A stretch of 20,309 bases of DNA, taken from the IMG/VR virus record IMGVR_UViG_3300010379_001190; one strand, given 5' to 3'. The notes under the pieces are model-generated. The model was given only the letters and a program-made list of their open reading frames with translations. It made no database searches and had not been told where the DNA came from. This document shows, one piece after another, positions 1 to 7,475 of this stretch (the stretch's first letter is position 1; each line of letters starts with the position of its first letter). The DNA is from a virus. The translations under genes were made by a program, and so were the position numbers.

Positions 1-393
1 ACAAACGGAGGAGGAAACCAAGATAGAAAGAAGCAAAGTAGCGGTTATACAATCTTTCGCAATTTAATACGCAAAAAATTTCCGGATGGGTTCAGAGTGC
101 TTTGTCATAATTGTAATTTTGCACATGGCATGTTGGGATATTGTCCGCACAAGTCGGGAACCAAAATCTTACCTGAAATCCCCCCAGCTGTCGTCTATCC
201 TCATTATTCAGAAAATGGACGCAAGATGCGGGGTGTTCAGAAATCGGGTTCCAGGCTGACAGATGAGGCCGTACGAAGTATAAAGGCCAGTCGAGAGACT
301 CACGCATATTTATCTCGGAAGTTTGGGGTGAGTGCCGTAGCTATTTGCAAGATCAGGAATGGCCAATTATGGGCACATATCACCCCAGCTTGA
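1..393 (+). CDS. HNH homing endonuclease, C-terminal portion (5' end lies outside the window); C-terminal HTH-like tail
   Basis: Frame 1 is open from nt 1 (TNGGGNQDRKK...). The motif ...NGGG...FRVLCHNCNFAHG parallels ...DHIHGGG...QVLCFNCNFGKG of the 7450..8157 ORF (HNH signature: DH-x-H ... LC-x-NCN). The tail LTDEAVRSIKASR..LSRKFGVSAVAICKIRNG is HTH-like. Confidence 0.6.
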   Translation, partial: TNGGGNQDRKKQSSGYTIFRNLIRKKFPDGFRVLCHNCNFAHGMLGYCPHKSGTKILPEIPPAVVYPHYSENGRKMRGVQKSGSRLTDEAVRSIKASRETHAYLSRKFGVSAVAICKIRNGQLWAHITPA

Positions 394-697
394 TGAAAGG
401 CCTCTTCGAAAGCCGTTCTTCATCGGCCTTCTCTACTTCAACCATTCTACGGGCAAATTCTTCGGTATGTTCCTCGAGGGCTTGCAAAGCTTCGGTTACC
501 CGTTTGAACTTCTCTGGATCGCCACCCGTATCGGGGTGGTGAGCAGCCAAAAGCCGTTTGGCAGATTTCTTGGCTATTTCAAGCTCTTGGCGGGCAGCTG
601 CCACTCGCTGGGATTTTGGAATCTTGGCAAGCTTCGATACGACATTGTGGGCGTCAAACCCAAGGGTCGTCCATGCGATACCAACCGACATACTCAA
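380..697 (-). CDS. J-domain-only co-chaperone (DnaJ N-terminal domain protein)
   Basis: Translation contains AKKSAKRLLAAHHPDTGGDPEKFKRVTEALQAL, a J-domain helix II/III with the invariant HPD. TTG start with an in-frame ATG 2 codons later. The antisense ORF 359..859 has no motif. Confidence 0.65.
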   Translation of the reverse strand: MSMSVGIAWTTLGFDAHNVVSKLAKIPKSQRVAAARQELEIAKKSAKRLLAAHHPDTGGDPEKFKRVTEALQALEEHTEEFARRMVEVEKADEERLSKRPFIKLG

Positions 698-855
698 AAC
701 AAACCTCTGACTGATTTCAAGCCCTTGGTTCTAGGCCGGATAACCCGAGCTTCGGTGAAAGCTATCAACTCTTCTAGAGTTGGAGCCTTACCCCGTGACT
801 TCTTGAAGTCAGCTACGGTTTGGTGGAGCTTAGTCAGAAATTCGTCATATTTCAT
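694..855 (-). CDS. Small hypothetical protein (53 aa, MKYDEFLTKLHQTVADFKKSRGKAPTLEELIAFTEARVIRPRTKGLKSVRGLF)
   Basis: ATG-initiated ORF below the track's length cutoff. Its TGA sits 2 nt before the start of the J-domain gene (ttTGAgtATG), suggesting coupling. The composition looks protein-like. Confidence 0.35.
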   Translation of the reverse strand: MKYDEFLTKLHQTVADFKKSRGKAPTLEELIAFTEARVIRPRTKGLKSVRGLF

Positions 856-899
856 GTAGCTTCAAAACACGATACAAATTATCGTAGTAAAGTGGGATC

Positions 900-1151
900 A
901 TGCAACCATATCGGATGCCAGCTAGGAATTTCAAACGTCAGCTTCCGGCTCCACGACCGGATTTCCAGGCGCTTTGGAGGATGCTAGTAGGTGTGGCCGA
1001 AGATGCCAAGAACGACCGGGTTAAGGCAATTTTGACCAATCACTCTGGCAAACAGGAATATATCTGCCGTAAATTGGGGGTCATATGTGCAGCAGATGTA
1101 GCGCGATTGGCTAAAAAATTTCACAAGCCAATTGCAGCACCCAAAGCGTAA
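900..1151 (+). CDS. Hypothetical protein with HTH-like segment (ILTNHSGKQEYICRKLGVICAADVARLAKKF)
   Basis: 83-aa ORF. The segment resembles the C-terminal HTH tail of the HNH ORF at 1..393. Confidence 0.4.
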   Translation: MQPYRMPARNFKRQLPAPRPDFQALWRMLVGVAEDAKNDRVKAILTNHSGKQEYICRKLGVICAADVARLAKKFHKPIAAPKA

Positions 1152-1342
1152 ATCTAACTGCCCCTCGTTGTAAGGAGTTTTTAGATGACGCCCATGGGCG
1201 ATTTCCCGGAGACTCGAACATCATGAAGACGCAAACGAAGACCGAAATCCGCAACAACACCGCCAAGGCGACCAAGTTGCTTCGCGGGATCGATAACTAG
1301 ACTGCCTCCATTACCAAAGCACAAAATGCCCTGAACAAGCGT

Positions 1343-1921
1343 GTGGCAACGGTGCAGAAGACAGCAGCTCAGGTGACTTCCCTCTTGGTTGGTATCTCGA
1401 ACACTGCGTTGGCCGCTCCCGTGACCGCGCCGAAGCCTGTCGCCAAGAAGCCCGCCAAGCCCGCCAAGAAAGTCACGAAGACCAAGGCTGCGAAACCAGC
1501 CAAGAAGTCCACCCCCAAGAAGGTGGCCAAGCCGGCCATGAAGGCCAAGGCAGCTCCCAAAAAGGTGGCCAAGCCTGTCGCCGCAAAGGCTCCGAAGTTG
1601 ACCAAGACTGGCGAACGGCCCCCGCTCATCTCGCTCATGAACGCGATCCTCGACAAGACGCCTGGTGTGACAGCCGCTGCGATCAATAGCGCACTCGTCG
1701 CCCAGGGGTTCAAGTTCTCGCGCCAGTCCCAATACAACCAGCTCAAGAAGACGGAGCTGTACGCGCGGACGGGTGAAGGCGCAGCGGCTACCTTCAAACG
1801 TGCTGCAGGCGCAAACTCTGCGAAGGCGGCTCCTGCCAAGGCTACCAAGACCTCGGACGAGGAAGCGGAGGCTTTCGTCGAGAAGTCGACTGCCAATCCG
1901 GTCACCGCAGCGGCGACCTAA
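1343..1921 (+). CDS. Lys/Ala/Pro-rich histone H1-like / nucleoid-associated DNA-binding protein (minimal GTG-start model; see finding on in-frame TAG upstream)
   Basis: Tandem PAKKxxK / AKPVAKK repeats (…APKPVAKKPAKPAKKVTKTKAAKPAKKSTPKKVAKPAMKAKAAPKKVAKPVAAKAPK…) typical of H1-like tails (Hc1/AlgP/BpH1-like proteins). GC-rich. The antisense ORFs are repeat artefacts. Confidence 0.6.
   Translation: MATVQKTAAQVTSLLVGISNTALAAPVTAPKPVAKKPAKPAKKVTKTKAAKPAKKSTPKKVAKPAMKAKAAPKKVAKPVAAKAPKLTKTGERPPLISLMNAILDKTPGVTAAAINSALVAQGFKFSRQSQYNQLKKTELYARTGEGAAATFKRAAGANSAKAAPAKATKTSDEEAEAFVEKSTANPVTAAAT
1426..1608 (+). repeat. Degenerate tandem 12-15 nt coding repeats (gccaagaag/cccgccaag...) encoding the AKKPAKP units
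   Basis: Directly visible iterations of gccaag/aagaag/cccgcc units. They are responsible for the long spurious antisense ORFs 1181..1972 and 1369..1905. Confidence 0.6.
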
Positions 1922-1931
1922 GACTCGGGCG

Positions 1932-1978
1932 ACATGTTTGCACCCAACTTCTCTTTGGTAGGTTGGGTGCAAACATGT
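1932..1978. terminator. Perfect 17-bp inverted repeat (acatgtttgcacccaac ... gttgggtgcaaacatgt) with 13-nt loop, 10 nt after the H1-like stop
   Basis: Seen directly. It forms a strong hairpin between two plus-strand transcription units. There is no U-tract after it, so it may be an intrinsic-terminator variant, an RNA processing site or a protein-binding site. Confidence 0.45.
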
Positions 1979-2046
1979 TGGGAAATTCTAAAAACTACGT
2001 CGTATGCGAAGGACAACGTTGTTAGACCTGCGTTGTATGCTACTTC

Positions 2047-2409
2047 ATGACCGTGGCAATCGACTCAGCTTACGAATTCGGCGGAATACCAGTATTGCGC
2101 ACATATGCCTGCCGTATCGCACGTCAACTCCTGCTCCACGCCAAACTCAAGAATGCCACAGTGGAAAGTGACCCCATTCTGGCCATAGAAGCAGACCTAG
2201 TAGAGATGGCAAAAGCGCGACTTCAGGAGTTTCTGCTGGCCTCGTTTCCTGATAACCAAAATATTGTCCGCTTGATAGCCATAGTTGCCGTCAAGAAGGT
2301 CGCAGCATCCAGAATTACGTCCGAAGATATAGATTCGGACGCTAAGAAATTCTTGCTTAGCCAGCTTGGAGATATGTCTATGGAGGATCTGATTCCACAG
2401 GTGCACTAA
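2047..2409 (+). CDS. Hypothetical protein (120 aa), first gene of a 5-gene plus-strand operon
   Basis: ORF with a 1-nt gap to the next gene (stop 2407-2409, ATG 2410). No motif recognised. Confidence 0.5.
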   Translation: MTVAIDSAYEFGGIPVLRTYACRIARQLLLHAKLKNATVESDPILAIEADLVEMAKARLQEFLLASFPDNQNIVRLIAIVAVKKVAASRITSEDIDSDAKKFLLSQLGDMSMEDLIPQVH

Positions 2410-2706
2410 ATGGAAGTCGAGTTTTTCAAATGGGAAGATTTCACTATGGCGAAGCTCCATGAGCAGATCCAGGCGAAATCGGTTAGCATCGGGTTCCAGT
2501 CCCAAGGCGTGACTGTGCGAATCCATGGCCGGCCGGGAACGGACAAAGACCGGCCTGACTATTGGACAGTCTACGCTATCTTCGAACAGGGCGGCAAAAA
2601 GCGAACAATGTCGAGGATTCTGCCACCGAAAGACGTGACTCAAGAGCTTGAAAGATCTGTCACTACGGCCAGGTCTATGATGTCAGCGTCACAACCTCCA
2701 GTCTGA
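2410..2706 (+). CDS. Hypothetical protein (98 aa)
   Basis: Its stop overlaps the next start by 1 nt (gtcTGATGg). Confidence 0.5.
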   Translation: MEVEFFKWEDFTMAKLHEQIQAKSVSIGFQSQGVTVRIHGRPGTDKDRPDYWTVYAIFEQGGKKRTMSRILPPKDVTQELERSVTTARSMMSASQPPV

Positions 2707-3158
2707 TGGGCGTCGAGATTGAGCGTCGCTTCCTGGTCATTCGGGAAAAGCTTCCAGACCTTTCAGAATGCCACTCATGGATGATGAAGCAGGCATATCT
2801 CGCACGTGACCCATGGGTCCGCATTCGAATAGTCGAAGGGAACACTCCCCAAGCAATTCTGACGGTCAAAGGCAAGGGCACGCTCACAAGGCCCGAAGTC
2901 AACTGCTCTATTCCTGTAGACAAAGCCCTCGAGATGTGGCCGATGGCTCGATGCGGGATAATCCATAAGATCCGACACAGCTGCGGACAGTGGGAAGTTG
3001 ATGAGTTTATGGATTCACTCGCCGGTCTTTGGCTCGCTGAGATAGAGCTCGCAAACGAAGACACGAAGTTCGACCGGCCAGAATGGCTTGGTCAAGAAGT
3101 GACCGAAGATATACGGTATTCGAACGCGTATATGGCAGAGCACGGTCTACCCAAGTAA
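2706..3158 (+). CDS. CYTH-domain protein (triphosphate tunnel metalloenzyme / class IV adenylate cyclase-like / thiamine triphosphatase-like)
   Basis: N-terminal MGVEIERRFLV matches the CYTH signature (M-x-EIERKFLV). The C-terminal WLAEIELANEDTKFDRPEWLGQEVTEDIRYSNAYMA matches the CYTH C-terminal acidic strand pattern (E-x-E-x-E ... EVT-x-D-x-RY-x-N). Confidence 0.65.
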   Translation: MGVEIERRFLVIREKLPDLSECHSWMMKQAYLARDPWVRIRIVEGNTPQAILTVKGKGTLTRPEVNCSIPVDKALEMWPMARCGIIHKIRHSCGQWEVDEFMDSLAGLWLAEIELANEDTKFDRPEWLGQEVTEDIRYSNAYMAEHGLPK

Positions 3159-3211
3159 AGTCTCTTGTGGACTTGAATCTGGCGAGCGCTCTCATGTCGG
3201 TGAGGGTTGCA

Positions 3212-3775
3212 ATGAAGGAAACTGCGGACAGGTCGTCCTTCCGCCGACTCCAGCTCTATTCAGAAGACGTGAAGTGCAAGCCCGGGTGCTCGGCGTGTTG
3301 CAATAGGCAGGTCTACATCACAGTTGCGGAAGCGCTCATCATCCAAGATCATCTCGAAAAGTCGGGTGAATGGCCGATAGTGGAGCAGCGGGCACGTGCC
3401 GTAATGATCATAGCTAGAGATGCACCGGCCGTAAGCTGGTTCAAGATGAACATTATGTGCCCAGTACTTGATCCGCTCTCCCGACTGTGCACGGCATATG
3501 AAGTAAGGCCTTCACCATGCTCCGTTCATTTCGTGCGCTCGGACCCCACTCAATGCGACCCGTGGGCCATGACCAGCTCGAAATATGATCCTGTGGATTT
3601 TACGGATCTACACGATCAGTTTCGGCAGACGCTCGAAAAAGTCATTGATGGGTATGGAATCTTAGCACTCAAATTCCCCATGCCGATTGCATTGGTATTC
3701 GCGTCCCGAGTCAAAATGCAGTCAAATCTTGGCCCGAATGAGATAGTTAATCTCATTTTCAACGAACTGCAATGA
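3212..3775 (+). CDS. YkgJ/UPF0153-like putative Fe-S or Zn-chelating Cys-cluster protein
   Basis: CKPGCSACCNRQVYIT cluster plus downstream CPVLD…CTAYEVRPSPCSVHF (the C…YE-x-RP-xx-C pattern of the family). The start is taken at ATG 3212, preceded by GAGGG at -10; ATG 3194 is the alternative. The track ORF from 3083 overlaps the CYTH gene. Confidence 0.5.
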   Translation: MKETADRSSFRRLQLYSEDVKCKPGCSACCNRQVYITVAEALIIQDHLEKSGEWPIVEQRARAVMIIARDAPAVSWFKMNIMCPVLDPLSRLCTAYEVRPSPCSVHFVRSDPTQCDPWAMTSSKYDPVDFTDLHDQFRQTLEKVIDGYGILALKFPMPIALVFASRVKMQSNLGPNEIVNLIFNELQ

Positions 3776-3996
3776 ACTGCGAATACTGCGCTCGACCAGC
3801 ACGTCCGCGAGAGGGGCTAGAGGATACCGCTGTGTGCGATTCATGCTATTCTTTGCTGCAGAATCCAGTGACGGCGCTGCCGCTCATACGTGGGCATTTG
3901 ACGCTGACATTGCGTGGTACAATGCCGGACGCCGAGCTCAAGAAAAAGATCGACGCCTTTATGCAGATGATTTCCGGCTGGAAAAGGCCCGGATGA
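3772..3996 (+). CDS. Small zinc-ribbon protein (CxxC…CxxC)
   Basis: MNCEYCARP…VCDSCYSLL gives two CxxC pairs. ATGA overlap with the upstream gene. Its stop forms TGATCA with the stop of the convergent sigma gene. Confidence 0.45.
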   Translation: MNCEYCARPARPREGLEDTAVCDSCYSLLQNPVTALPLIRGHLTLTLRGTMPDAELKKKIDAFMQMISGWKRPG

Positions 3997-4662
3997 TCAG
4001 GGTGCGGCGTTAGCACGTAGTAGATTTTGGACCTGCGCGCGAATGTCGCGTATTGTCTTGCTTGAAACTTTTCGACTACCCCACGAGAGCGCTTCGCGGA
4101 TGATGTCGGGGTTGGCACCAGAGCGGGCAACGCGTAGATAGCGAGCCACGTCCCACATCCCCTTCTTGCGGAGAGTCGATTCGACTTCTTCCATGTGCTC
4201 TGTAAGCGCATCGGTGGCCAGCGGGTCAGGGGCTGCCACATCAATTGTATCGAGCATTGTGCGACTATCGTCGGTGCTGTGCGGAGCGTCGATTGAATCG
4301 CGTTCCTTATCGTAGCGTTTGCGACGATGCACGAGGTTGATGCACACGTTGTTAGCCACCATATAGACGTAGTGGCCAAAGCTTGATTTGCGCGGGTCGT
4401 GAGCACTCCGCGTGTAGTTCTTGTGGATGATGGCGACGTAGACTTCTTGGATCAGCTCTTCCATAGGCACATCTTCAACCTTGAAGAACTTGTGCACTAT
4501 GCGAATGATATCCTTCTCTTTAGCGACGACATCAACGCCCAGTTGGGTCTTTTTGTCATCTTCTGCTAGTCGCGGCCACGGTAACCTATCCGGAACTTTC
4601 TTGAGGGGTTTGCCCGGGACTTGAATGGTTTTCGCCCGTTGTCCACCGCTTACAACAGTCAT
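3997..4662 (-). CDS. Sigma-70 family (ECF-like) RNA polymerase sigma factor
   Basis: Region 2 reads EELIQEVYVAIIHKNYTRSAHDPRKSSFGHYVYMVANNVCINLVHRRKRY (ECF consensus LvQEtf…sF.tWL..IarN..id.lRrr). A C-terminal region-4-like HTH is present (DIIREALSWGSRKVSSKTIRDIRAQV). The start is chosen at ATG 4662 (MTVVSGG…) behind GGAGGA at -8; the ORF is open up to 4695. Confidence 0.7.
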   Translation of the reverse strand: MTVVSGGQRAKTIQVPGKPLKKVPDRLPWPRLAEDDKKTQLGVDVVAKEKDIIRIVHKFFKVEDVPMEELIQEVYVAIIHKNYTRSAHDPRKSSFGHYVYMVANNVCINLVHRRKRYDKERDSIDAPHSTDDSRTMLDTIDVAAPDPLATDALTEHMEEVESTLRKKGMWDVARYLRVARSGANPDIIREALSWGSRKVSSKTIRDIRAQVQNLLRANAAP

Positions 4663-4726
4663 TATCGATATCCTCCGACTGCGAGGATTCATCATCCCCG
4701 CCCACCAGTCGCCTCAGTCGCACAAT

Positions 4727-4754
4727 TTGCGGACTGATCTATGCAGTCTAACAT
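4727..4754 (+). promoter_or_regulatory. Candidate sigma-70-type promoter (TTGCGG-16nt-TAACAT) for the plus-strand genes starting at 4785, in the divergent region shared with the sigma gene
   Basis: Hexamers and spacing read directly from sequence; the match to consensus is weak. Confidence 0.2.
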
Positions 4755-4784
4755 GCCAATTGAGTCGATGCAAGGCCGCTTGTA

Positions 4785-5366
4785 ATGTCTAAAAACATGG
4801 AAGGCAAGCTTGATTTCCTCCGGGAATGTATGTCGGACCCGGCATTGGTGCAGCGCCCCATACCTATTGACCAATTTGGAAAGGCATTTTGCATAGTCTG
4901 CGCCTACAAGCCCTGCGTCCGGAGCAGGGCCAACACCATGTTGTTTACTGAAAGAGTTGCCAATTGGGAAGACCGAATGTTCCGGAAAGTCCCAAGGGCG
5001 CCAGAAAATGATGAGAGATACGCTCAAATACGGGGCAAACGCTTCTTAACCGTAGAGGAGCCCCTCATAGTCAATACCGATCCGGAAAGTGTTCCAACTG
5101 TGGAGCAACCACCGGAAGCCCCCGTACATTCCACACCCCCACAACCTACGAAACCTCCCATTCAAATAATTCCCGTTCCGCCGGCGGCCGCTCCTTTGGT
5201 TATGACGCAACAGTCTCCGCCCGTTGCCGCACCGCATCAGGGAGAGCCTACCCTCAACAACACCCCATTCCAAGGCGGAATTGTACTCCCAGGCAAACCC
5301 GAGGACAAGAAAGAGGACCAGTTTGTAGAGCCTGGTTCGACTTTCACATTCGGTGAAGACGAATGA
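4785..5366 (+). CDS. Hypothetical protein with Pro-rich C-terminal half
   Basis: 193-aa ORF. Contains a CIVCAYKPC cluster followed by PPEAPVHSTPPQPTKPPIQIIPVPPAAAP. ATGA overlap with the next gene. Confidence 0.5.
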   Translation: MSKNMEGKLDFLRECMSDPALVQRPIPIDQFGKAFCIVCAYKPCVRSRANTMLFTERVANWEDRMFRKVPRAPENDERYAQIRGKRFLTVEEPLIVNTDPESVPTVEQPPEAPVHSTPPQPTKPPIQIIPVPPAAAPLVMTQQSPPVAAPHQGEPTLNNTPFQGGIVLPGKPEDKKEDQFVEPGSTFTFGEDE

Positions 5367-6235
5367 GCAAGAAGATAAAGAAGGCCCCGCCCATTACCAC
5401 ATCTTGGGGCGAGGATATATTTGCTCTAGTGGCAGCGCAGAAGCTCGGGTCTAAGAAGCTTGCTCAGTCTGCCGAACAAACAATAGAGAGACGCTATAGG
5501 CTCGAGCTCCGAGAGAAATTTCAAAAAGACGAAAGAGTCCACAAAGCGCTTGTGGAATCAGCCGAATGTTTGCTCACAGACGGCACGTTTGAGTCTATCT
5601 GTGGACTGGTAAAAGACTTGATTCGGGTCGGAACTGAAGAAATTTTCTTCGGAATCTTGCACGAACTTCTTGAAGAGCTCGATGCGATGCACAATCGCGA
5701 ACCATCGGCTTATCTAATTGCCAATTCGGATGGCAAAGTGCTGATGCCGATCAGCGCCAAGGATATCTATACGCCTCCGCCATACGTTGGCGAAGATGGG
5801 ATTACCCGTCCAGCCAAGCCGATACTGCATCCAGCGATATCTGCCCCGCTCATCATGTTGGCTCACGAGAAGGGCCGAAAAAGCGAAGCCATCGAACGAG
5901 CCGTTGAAGCTGGTTCCCCAGCAGCAGTTGAGCATCTCATCCAGGGTCCAGAAAGTATTCTCGAGCGTGCGCGGATCCTTCTCCAACATCAAGGCATTGA
6001 GGTTGAACCTATTGATGCGGGTACCACTCAAACAGTCGAAGTTGGTAGAGAGCGTGTAGATGATATGCTACAGGCTCCGAATTATGGATTTCACCGTTCT
6101 CAGATGTACGGGTCCCTCCTTGCAAAGAAGGTCATCGACTTGCTACAGGGGCGTCGCAAGTGTGATTTGAAATCAGCTACTCTGAAAAAGGGTTCGAAAG
6201 AACAGTGGTATTCTGTAGTTCTAATGCTACCTTAG
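5363..6235 (+). CDS. Hypothetical protein (290 aa)
   Basis: Long ORF, translationally coupled on both sides. No motif recognised. Confidence 0.55.
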   Translation: MSKKIKKAPPITTSWGEDIFALVAAQKLGSKKLAQSAEQTIERRYRLELREKFQKDERVHKALVESAECLLTDGTFESICGLVKDLIRVGTEEIFFGILHELLEELDAMHNREPSAYLIANSDGKVLMPISAKDIYTPPPYVGEDGITRPAKPILHPAISAPLIMLAHEKGRKSEAIERAVEAGSPAAVEHLIQGPESILERARILLQHQGIEVEPIDAGTTQTVEVGRERVDDMLQAPNYGFHRSQMYGSLLAKKVIDLLQGRRKCDLKSATLKKGSKEQWYSVVLMLP

Positions 6236-6238
6236 AAT

Positions 6239-6928
6239 ATGCGCTGGACAATTTATTGTCATACCCACATTGCAACTGGGCGTCGGTACATTGGGCTCAC
6301 CAAAATGAGCATGATGAAACGATGGAATAGGCATGTTTATTCATCAAAAAGCTCGAAAGACGGATTTAGGAACAACTATCGATTTGCGAATGCAATTCGT
6401 AAATACGGGAAAGAAGCCTTTATCCATGAAGAATTAGCTCAGTGTAGAACTCTAGAAGATGCTAACTTAACTGAGGAAGCGGTCATACTTCAGTATGACG
6501 CCCGAAATCCCGAGAAGGGATTTAATGTCATGCGAGGCGGATTGTCCATCCCAAATTCTATTCGTAAAAATCCGTGGAATGATCCTGTCTATCGTGCAAA
6601 ACAAATATTAGTAAATTCAGATCCGGCTGTGAGAAAGAGAAAAAGAGACGCCGCAAACCGCATTTCTCCGGAACTTCGGCAATTGTTAAATAACAAACTA
6701 CGTGGTAGGAAGCTTAGTCATCAGTCAATAGCAAACCTGAAATTGTTCTATGAAAAGAAGTATAAAAAACGAGCATTGGAACCTATCAAATTCCGATGCA
6801 AGAAGCATGGAAATTGTGGGTTCCGCATGAAACGACGAGCGAATGGCAGGTGCTTTCCAAAATGTGTGGAATGCCATAAGGAATATATGAAAGTCTACAA
6901 CCTTAGCCACCTGAGGGAAGGGCTTTAG
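6239..6928 (+). CDS. GIY-YIG homing endonuclease (Seg/I-Tev-like)
   Basis: N-terminus WTIYCHTHIATGRRYIGLTKMS…RWNRH is the GIY-(10-11)-YIG…R…H motif. The C-terminal region is basic with repeated DNA-binding-like modules. The composition is AT-rich relative to neighbours. Confidence 0.8.
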   Translation: MRWTIYCHTHIATGRRYIGLTKMSMMKRWNRHVYSSKSSKDGFRNNYRFANAIRKYGKEAFIHEELAQCRTLEDANLTEEAVILQYDARNPEKGFNVMRGGLSIPNSIRKNPWNDPVYRAKQILVNSDPAVRKRKRDAANRISPELRQLLNNKLRGRKLSHQSIANLKLFYEKKYKKRALEPIKFRCKKHGNCGFRMKRRANGRCFPKCVECHKEYMKVYNLSHLREGL

Positions 6929-7475
6929 GCTGTCTCTCTTCCCATCGGGCGTAATCCTCAAGCACGCATTGGAGCACGCACGCGAGGGCCCATTGGAACT
7001 CAGCCACTCCGGCAATGTGTGCTTGCTTTTGAATCCCTTCCATAACCTTCAGAATATCATCGACGCGGCACCGCCACCGGAAATCAATGTAGACCCCGAG
7101 CGGAAGCATCGGAATAATATCGGACGGGTCCTTGAGAAAAACTGTCAGCCGCTCATAGATCTCTAGAAGCTGCTGTAACCAACCTCGGACTGCAGTGTTT
7201 ACCTGTGTGGCGCCTCCCGACGATCCGCCAAGTATGTTCATTCGCTCAGTCGTTACTTGTGGCATCCACACAGCCACTGGCTGATGAATGCGTGGATGAT
7301 CAATAAGACCAGCGGCAAGTAGCTGCGGGATTACTGCCTGGAAAAGACAGCACGGCATCGTAATGTCCAGCGATGCTTGGCGAGATGCAAAGTCGCGGGC
7401 TGCGAACTCCACTTGTCCGTGCTCGAAGAATCTGGTGTCATCTTGGGGCTCAATCTTTCTTTCCATCAAAATCAA
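6903..7475 (-). CDS. Hypothetical protein (190 aa), sandwiched between and overlapping two homing-endonuclease genes
   Basis: ORF only; no motif recognised. It overlaps the GIY-YIG 3' end by 26 nt and the HNH 3' end by 26 nt. Confidence 0.45.
   Translation of the reverse strand: MILMERKIEPQDDTRFFEHGQVEFAARDFASRQASLDITMPCCLFQAVIPQLLAAGLIDHPRIHQPVAVWMPQVTTERMNILGGSSGGATQVNTAVRGWLQQLLEIYERLTVFLKDPSDIIPMLPLGVYIDFRWRCRVDDILKVMEGIQKQAHIAGVAEFQWALACVLQCVLEDYARWEERQPKALPSGG

Follow-up and report, generated by a model that had tools for sequence, protein, structure and literature searches.

The in-frame TAG at positions 1298-1300 of the DNA analysed here (20,309 nucleotides from a virus, IMG/VR record IMGVR_UViG_3300010379_001190; the whole of this stretch is called the window below) is very probably a non-programmed difference of one base, located within a conserved gene whose reading begins at ATG 1223. 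The best explanation would be a single conserved gene of 232 codons, read from this ATG, in which a G-to-T difference at base 1298 turns the GAG (Glu) of codon 26 into TAG. Two origins of the change appear about equally likely: the sampled phage population may carry a nonsense allele that is very recent or still segregating, or the assembly may contain a base error. The finding is of an ordinary kind, and its practical outcome is a corrected annotation: the start should be placed at ATG 1223 and the gene described as 232 codons interrupted by a single stop, flagged as a possible pseudogene or as a low-quality base. Protein databases now carry a 192-aa ORF beginning at GTG instead of the 232-codon gene.

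Layout of the locus

The elements described in the original prediction were all found in place. A TAAGGAG (1171-1177) lies 7 nt ahead of ATG 1185, which opens a mini-ORF of 13 codons whose TGA overlaps ATG 1223 (ATGA). The frame from ATG 1223 reads MKTQTKTEIRNNTAKATKLLRGIDN up to the TAG at 1298-1300 and continues with TASITKAQNALNKRV... as far as the TAA at 1919-1921. Past the TAG, the frame indeed offers its first canonical start at GTG 1343, with no GGAG-type motif in front of it, and it is followed by a second in-frame candidate, GTG 1352, these two lying 43-52 nt past the stop; an in-frame ATG comes no earlier than codon 106. The features to which we refer are the following.

900-1151, + strand: upstream neighbour gene, conserved, 83 codons; a synteny anchor with orthologues in relatives
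1169-1177, + strand: TGTAAGGAG, containing the 'perfect SD' TAAGGAG; aligns with the TGTAA-purine-rich motif of relatives without the uORF
1185-1226, + strand: mini-ORF of 13 codons (MTPMGDFPETRTS), with its TGA (1224-1226) overlapping ATG 1223
1208-1211, + strand: GGAG, a poorly spaced Shine-Dalgarno remnant of the main gene, 11 nt before ATG 1223
1223-1921, + strand: family gene in its full extent, 232 codons plus TAA, interrupted by TAG at codon 26; homologues align end to end from Met1
1298-1300, + strand: in-frame TAG at codon 26, G-to-T at base 1298 relative to GAG (Glu), from the codon comparison of 30 loci and from L048, L001 and L002
1343-1921, + strand: GTG ORF of 192 codons (P0002), as called by the gene caller of the source; an artefact of the premature stop and not a natural start
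1930-1980, + strand: strong stem-loop just past the TAA of the gene, from its fold energy against shuffles

A stop codon private to one contig

Homologues were compared at the TAG, as the original prediction had proposed. DNA was collected for 30 homologous loci, the window included, and the codon that follows RGIDN is GAG in 14 of them, GAA in eight, GAC in four, AAC in two, GAT in one and TAG in the window only. The position is thus occupied by a sense codon in 29 of the 29 other loci, and the TAG is one base away from GAG. In the DNA alignment with the closest relatives, the window has AAC-TAG where L001 has AAC-GAG and L002 has AAC-GAA.

A near-identical genome carries the sense codon as well. 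The second member of the 90% cluster of the window's truncated protein, P0035 (JGI sample 3300032160), has the same 232 residues as the window's read-through protein, residue 26 being Glu. The contig that encodes it (Ga0311301_10927663, from the same sample; L048) matches positions 975-2141 of the window at 1165 of 1167 bases, and the only two differences are a G at 1298 and a G at 1959, the window having T at both. A second contig from this sample, L049, matches positions 2110-6915 with three differences. In a third assembly, a Logan contig (L050) is 100% identical to the window over 1145 bases and ends short of the gene and of base 1298; because of this identity, the window contig is not generally error-prone.

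Taken against the sister contigs L048 and L049 together, the window differs at 5 of 5,941 bases, four of these five differences being G/T or C/A pairs. Polarisation with L001 shows that the window carries the derived base at 1298 (E26stop), at 4179 (A162S in the sigma-like gene) and at 5456 (E32K in a 290-aa gene), and none of these three differences is synonymous. G-to-T is also the classic artefact of oxidative damage, 8-oxoG being recognised by an unequal share of such changes in read 1 and read 2 (PMC3616734). The five differences fit changes that have not yet been filtered by selection, be they new mutations or errors, which, with five sites only, is a hint and not proof.

At position 6904, it is the sister contig that is the odd one, since L049 (at about 4795) has a G where both the window and L001 have a T, 12 nt from the end of the contig. 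This base changes the TAA stop of the gene at 6903-7466 (- strand) to TCA, and it may correspond to a strain-variant bubble or to a contig-end error.

A nonsense mutation and a sequencing error were both among the explanations listed in the original prediction, and they are jointly favoured here, the stop being absent from L048 and from all 29 other loci. Because the one-letter change from GAG to TAG is private to this contig, we attribute it to ordinary nonsense mutation or to an error of base calling, and not to programmed recoding. If the change is real, translation would end after 25 residues; a restart at GTG 1343 would then give a product deprived of residues 1-40, and thus of RGID and of two thirds of the N-terminal helix.

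The codon changes of the gene speak for the age of the lesion. Compared with L001 and L002, the window lineage has accumulated 23 synonymous and six non-synonymous changes, the latter all conservative, and the intact relatives show similar proportions (31:11 and 23:4). Apart from the TAG, this codon comparison with L001 and L002 revealed neither a frameshift nor a further stop in the window's gene. The 23:6 ratio and the lack of any frameshift or second stop therefore suggest that the gene was under purifying selection until very recently.

The N-terminus is the best-conserved part of the family

A search of a large protein collection with the read-through translation as query retrieved about 30 relatives of 128-271 aa. 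The N-terminus was aligned for 25 of them, and homologues of 208-271 aa align with the window protein end to end from Met1. All 25 aligned homologues begin at the Met equivalent to 1223 (MKTQTKTEIRNN..KLLRGIDN), with the block KTEIRNNTAKATKLLRGIDN in each; in all, about 25 homologous proteins and 30 homologous loci begin like MKTQTKTEIRNNTAKATKLLRGIDN. Residues R21, G22, I23 and D24 are invariant in the 25-protein alignment, and the 25 codons ahead of the TAG form the best-conserved block of the family. Since they are the most conserved part of the family, the continuity of the frame upstream of the TAG cannot be attributed to chance. Judged by this alignment, the segment from ATG 1223 to the TAG is genuine coding sequence.

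Read-through, suppression and alternative starts

The alternative that survives best, although we consider it very unlikely, is that the TAG is decoded as an amino acid, by programmed amber read-through or suppressor-dependent expression, owing to a suppressor tRNA of the phage or its host or to a weak termination context, such that the full-length protein is still made. In its favour, the sequence past the TAG is still under purifying selection and carries no second lesion; a very recent change accounts equally well for this intact downstream sequence. Likewise, most of the genome lies outside the window, and large phages often carry tRNA genes. Recoded phages do exist (bioRxiv 10.1101/2021.08.26.457843; PMC9523058). 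Against decoding of the TAG, no homologue has a stop at this position and the near-identical L048 has GAG, and the homologues carry Glu here and not the Gln expected for code 15.

The search for further in-frame TAGs that had been suggested found none in conserved genes: in tblastn comparisons of the called genes of L001, L003 and L007 with positions 380-11763 of the window, which hold about 15 conserved genes, the stop at 1298 is the sole in-frame stop. TAG also serves as a normal terminator. The 26 confident genes end in TAA (11), TGA (10) or TAG (5), and those ending in TAG include PolA and the gene located two genes downstream of the sigma-like gene. The original prediction had noted that the Pol gene and the DnaC-like gene terminate at TAG, which they do, and had judged genome-wide reassignment of TAG to be unlikely; we find no support for it. 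Reading TAG as a sense codon lengthens the ORFs less than reading TGA as sense does, and it does so via extensions in the wrong frame; the gene-by-gene comparison also speaks against such a reassignment.

ARAGORN detected no tRNA gene in the 20-kb window, which is part of a genome that is probably larger than 180 kb. No suppressor tRNA with a CUA anticodon was found in 24 partial related loci, where a single doubtful 88-nt tRNA call was obtained. Programmed read-through or suppression, the first explanation offered in the original prediction, thus finds no support, given the lack of a stop in any homologue and of any other in-frame TAG in the conserved genes compared, the use of TAG as terminator and the lack of a tRNA gene in the window. 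Equally improbable is that the amber allele is genuine and is maintained in nature, in a population of a large environmental phage, because an amber suppressor tRNA of the phage or the host decodes it. If this were true, the window would capture the very beginning of a move toward TAG recoding. More generally, the relatives should be checked before a lone in-frame TAG of a phage contig is taken for recoding.

Even less likely is a real nonsense allele that has acquired a function of its own, with both the 25-residue peptide and a restart product being used. GTG 1343 and GTG 1352 lie a short way past the stop, and reinitiation after premature stops is known in bacteria. However, the split is present in one contig only, no relative shows such an arrangement, and it would sever the invariant RGID motif and the continuous helix 6-62.

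Last, and close to negligible in our view, is the possibility that GTG 1343 is the true start, the upstream frame being a coincidence or a leader and the strong-SD mini-ORF controlling expression: the gene caller did pick GTG 1343 (P0002), and the mini-ORF with TAAGGAG at ideal spacing is found in the three closest genomes, but every homologue begins at the Met equivalent to 1223 with its first 25 residues best conserved, GTG 1343 lacks an SD, the mini-ORF has an unconserved peptide and is broken or missing in L003, in L007 and in every distant relative, and the pattern of an SD followed by an ATG occurs at chance frequency. The N-termini of the homologues had been named in advance as decisive for this question. 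The idea of a uORF followed by the exclusive use of GTG 1343 fails because the homologues carry the MKTQTK...GIDN N-terminus; their start corresponds to ATG 1223 and not to the GTG, and the stretch MKTQTK...RGIDN hardly varies among them. We thus return to the preferred explanation, a single conserved gene with a non-programmed change at codon 26.

The mini-ORF and upstream signals

The mini-ORF is best explained as an accident of one clade and not as a conserved regulatory device. The window, L001 and L002 have it, L010 and L016 have a 12-codon version, and L021 has a version starting at GTG. The corresponding register reads MTP-stop in L003, the ATG has become ATT in L007, and more distant relatives have no equivalent. 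Direct reading of the alignment between the window and L001 gives five non-synonymous changes and one synonymous change in the mini-ORF. Across the family, no conservation of a leader peptide or uORF was observed, the mini-ORF being confined to the nearest clade and its peptide unconserved. Its overlap with the main gene is automatic because the conserved start Met-Lys is written ATGAAG. Moreover, the window has two cases of AAGGAG with an ATG 4-10 nt further on, where 1.44 would be expected, and 44 of 100 shuffled sequences contain at least two. The mini-ORF signal is no more than chance.

A role for the mini-ORF in the window clade is nevertheless conceivable. L003 and L007 have GGAGG 4 nt before the main ATG, whereas the window clade has extra bases between GGAG and ATG. 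Because the GGAG of the window lies 11 nt from the ATG, as compared with 4 nt for the GGAGG of L003 and L007, translational coupling through the mini-ORF can be envisaged in this clade. The mini-ORF may then load ribosomes for termination-reinitiation at the ATGA.

The 'perfect SD' itself may have another meaning. Relatives, including those without the uORF, carry TGTAAAAAT, TGTAAAAGT or TGTAAGGGG 43-68 nt before the ATG of the family gene. Because TAAGGAG aligns with this TGTAA-purine-rich motif, it may be a variant of a conserved promoter-like element. The more general motif TGTAA[AG][AG][AG][TG] recurs 40-68 nt upstream of gene starts, and it is found before the family gene even in distant relatives. 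Sites of this motif are located as follows.

Window, 1169-1177, + strand
Window, 17721-17729, - strand
L003, 9958
L007, 9953
L025, 2935
L026, 2937
L030, 2901

The motif may represent a phage-specific promoter element, most of its instances being orthologous and their independent support thin. The promoter and terminator scan revealed nothing relevant on the + strand, and the 5' leader (1160-1300) folds no better than shuffled versions of it (z = 0.06).

Downstream of the gene, the hairpin at 1930-1980 has a near-perfect stem of 23 bp, with a folding energy of -35 kcal/mol (z = -7.6), and none of 200 shuffles folds as well. It is probably a transcript-end or stabilising element. No T-run follows the stem. 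Base 1959, the second position at which L048 differs from the window, is an unpaired bulge within this hairpin. In an Rfam search of positions 800-2200, a single sub-threshold chance match was obtained, on the terminator hairpin.

The protein family

The structure of the closest intact homologue was predicted with AlphaFold from 27 aligned sequences. The model comprises a long helix (residues 6-62, pLDDT 80-90), a disordered linker rich in Lys, Ala and Pro (63-133), a winged helix of three helices and two strands (135-193, pLDDT 79-87) and an acidic C-terminal helix of low confidence. The predicted order of the parts is therefore an N-terminal long helix, a basic linker, a winged helix and an acidic tail, and the position of the TAG corresponds to the middle of the predicted N-terminal helix.

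The gene had been labelled H1-like in the original prediction. The Lys/Ala/Pro-rich tract and the winged helix do bear this resemblance; the label finds no support in the Pfam linker-histone profile, which matches neither the window protein nor the 27 family members, and the domain order differs. A Foldseek comparison with the PDB recovered generic winged-helix regulators only (Fur, MarR and ArsR, with E values of at least 0.016), and the linker histone H5 appears at rank 36 (E = 0.15). One of the 27 members matches HARE-HTH (PF05066) at 3.5e-7, the window protein having no match to it. Searches of Pfam and PHROGs with the protein gave nothing meaningful, and a sequence profile search of the PDB gave nothing below E = 0.028.

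This is a conserved, uncharacterised family of large uncultured phages. Quite apart from the TAG, it might deserve study as a predicted DNA-binding or chromatin-like protein.

Genomic setting

The GenBank phage collection contains no match to the whole window (megablast) or to the protein (tblastn). IMG/VR gave no match when searched with the single protein; when searched with the alignment, it yielded four contigs of 36-308 kb, three of them of 184-308 kb. The family also occurs on contigs of up to 445 kb. No relative was detected in the 185,579 species-representative bacterial and archaeal genomes of GTDB. Because the family resides on viral contigs of 184-308 kb in IMG/VR and is absent from the species-representative genomes, the window most likely comes from the genome of a large uncultured phage.

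The family gene belongs to a conserved syntenic block composed of the 83-aa gene, the family gene, CYTH, CxxCxxCC, the sigma-like gene, dCTP deaminase, PolA and DnaJ. In L003, L006 and L007, an 83-aa orthologue is the gene immediately before the family gene; L001 has a shorter call at this place.

We noticed several other peculiarities in this region. A GIY-YIG endonuclease gene at 6239-6928 (+ strand), with a borderline Pfam match (E = 2e-4; 22.0 bits against a cut-off of 22.6 bits), separates two genes that are direct neighbours in L001, L003 and L007. L001 shows 100% identity over the last ~50 nt around the 3' end of this gene, which looks like a homing-endonuclease insertion. The dCTP-deaminase gene at 8054-8728 (- strand) is 28-31% identical to the gene at the same position in L003 and L007, as compared with 80-82% for the flanking PolA; because of this disparity, the alignments suggest a gene replacement at that position. 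Finally, the gene at 15050-17689 (- strand), within a phage replication block, encodes an 879-aa protein that matches the shoulder domain of the major vault protein (1.7e-24) and a vault repeat (3.4e-07); the gene is preceded by AAGGAGG and by a TGTAAAAGT motif.

Comparison with known systems

The protein family resembles the linker histones H1/H5 and the bacterial H1-like basic proteins in combining a Lys/Ala/Pro-rich low-complexity tract with a winged helix. Unlike in the linker histones H1/H5, its parts follow the order of helix, basic linker, winged helix and acidic tail.

The mini-ORF is reminiscent of translational coupling (ATGA) and of leader-peptide uORFs, as it has an SD, an ATG and a TGA overlapping the main ATG. 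It differs from them in that the overlap follows from the ATG-AAG start, the mini-ORF is restricted to one clade, its peptide is unconserved and its occurrence is statistically unremarkable.

Programmed read-through of stop codons is exemplified by the A1 protein of Q-beta and by UAG read-through in retroviruses and tobamoviruses. The window shares with these cases a stop followed by an open frame that looks coding. In cases of programmed read-through, however, the stop is conserved in relatives and divides a complete short product from its extension, whereas the stop of the window is unique to one contig and falls at codon 26, inside a conserved helix.

Recoded phages contain numerous in-frame TAGs; they typically possess suppressor tRNA genes and have TAG codons aligned to Gln in their relatives. 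An in-frame TAG after which the gene continues is what the window has in common with phages in which TAG is recoded to Gln (code 15; crAss-like and Lak-type; bioRxiv 10.1101/2021.08.26.457843; PMC9523058; PMC10607447). In the recoded phage phAss-1, in-frame TAGs are reported in 41 ORFs (PMC10607447). Unlike the code 15 phages, the window has a single TAG, aligned to Glu, uses TAG as a normal terminator and has no visible suppressor.

The last comparison is with amber mutants of the classical kind, known from phages T4 and lambda, and with consensus base errors of metagenome assemblies. Unlike the T4 and lambda mutants, the window comes from an uncultured population and its allele is putative. 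As in an ordinary amber mutation or a base error, one base turns a conserved sense codon into TAG in a gene that is otherwise intact and under selection, and a near-identical genome retains the sense codon.
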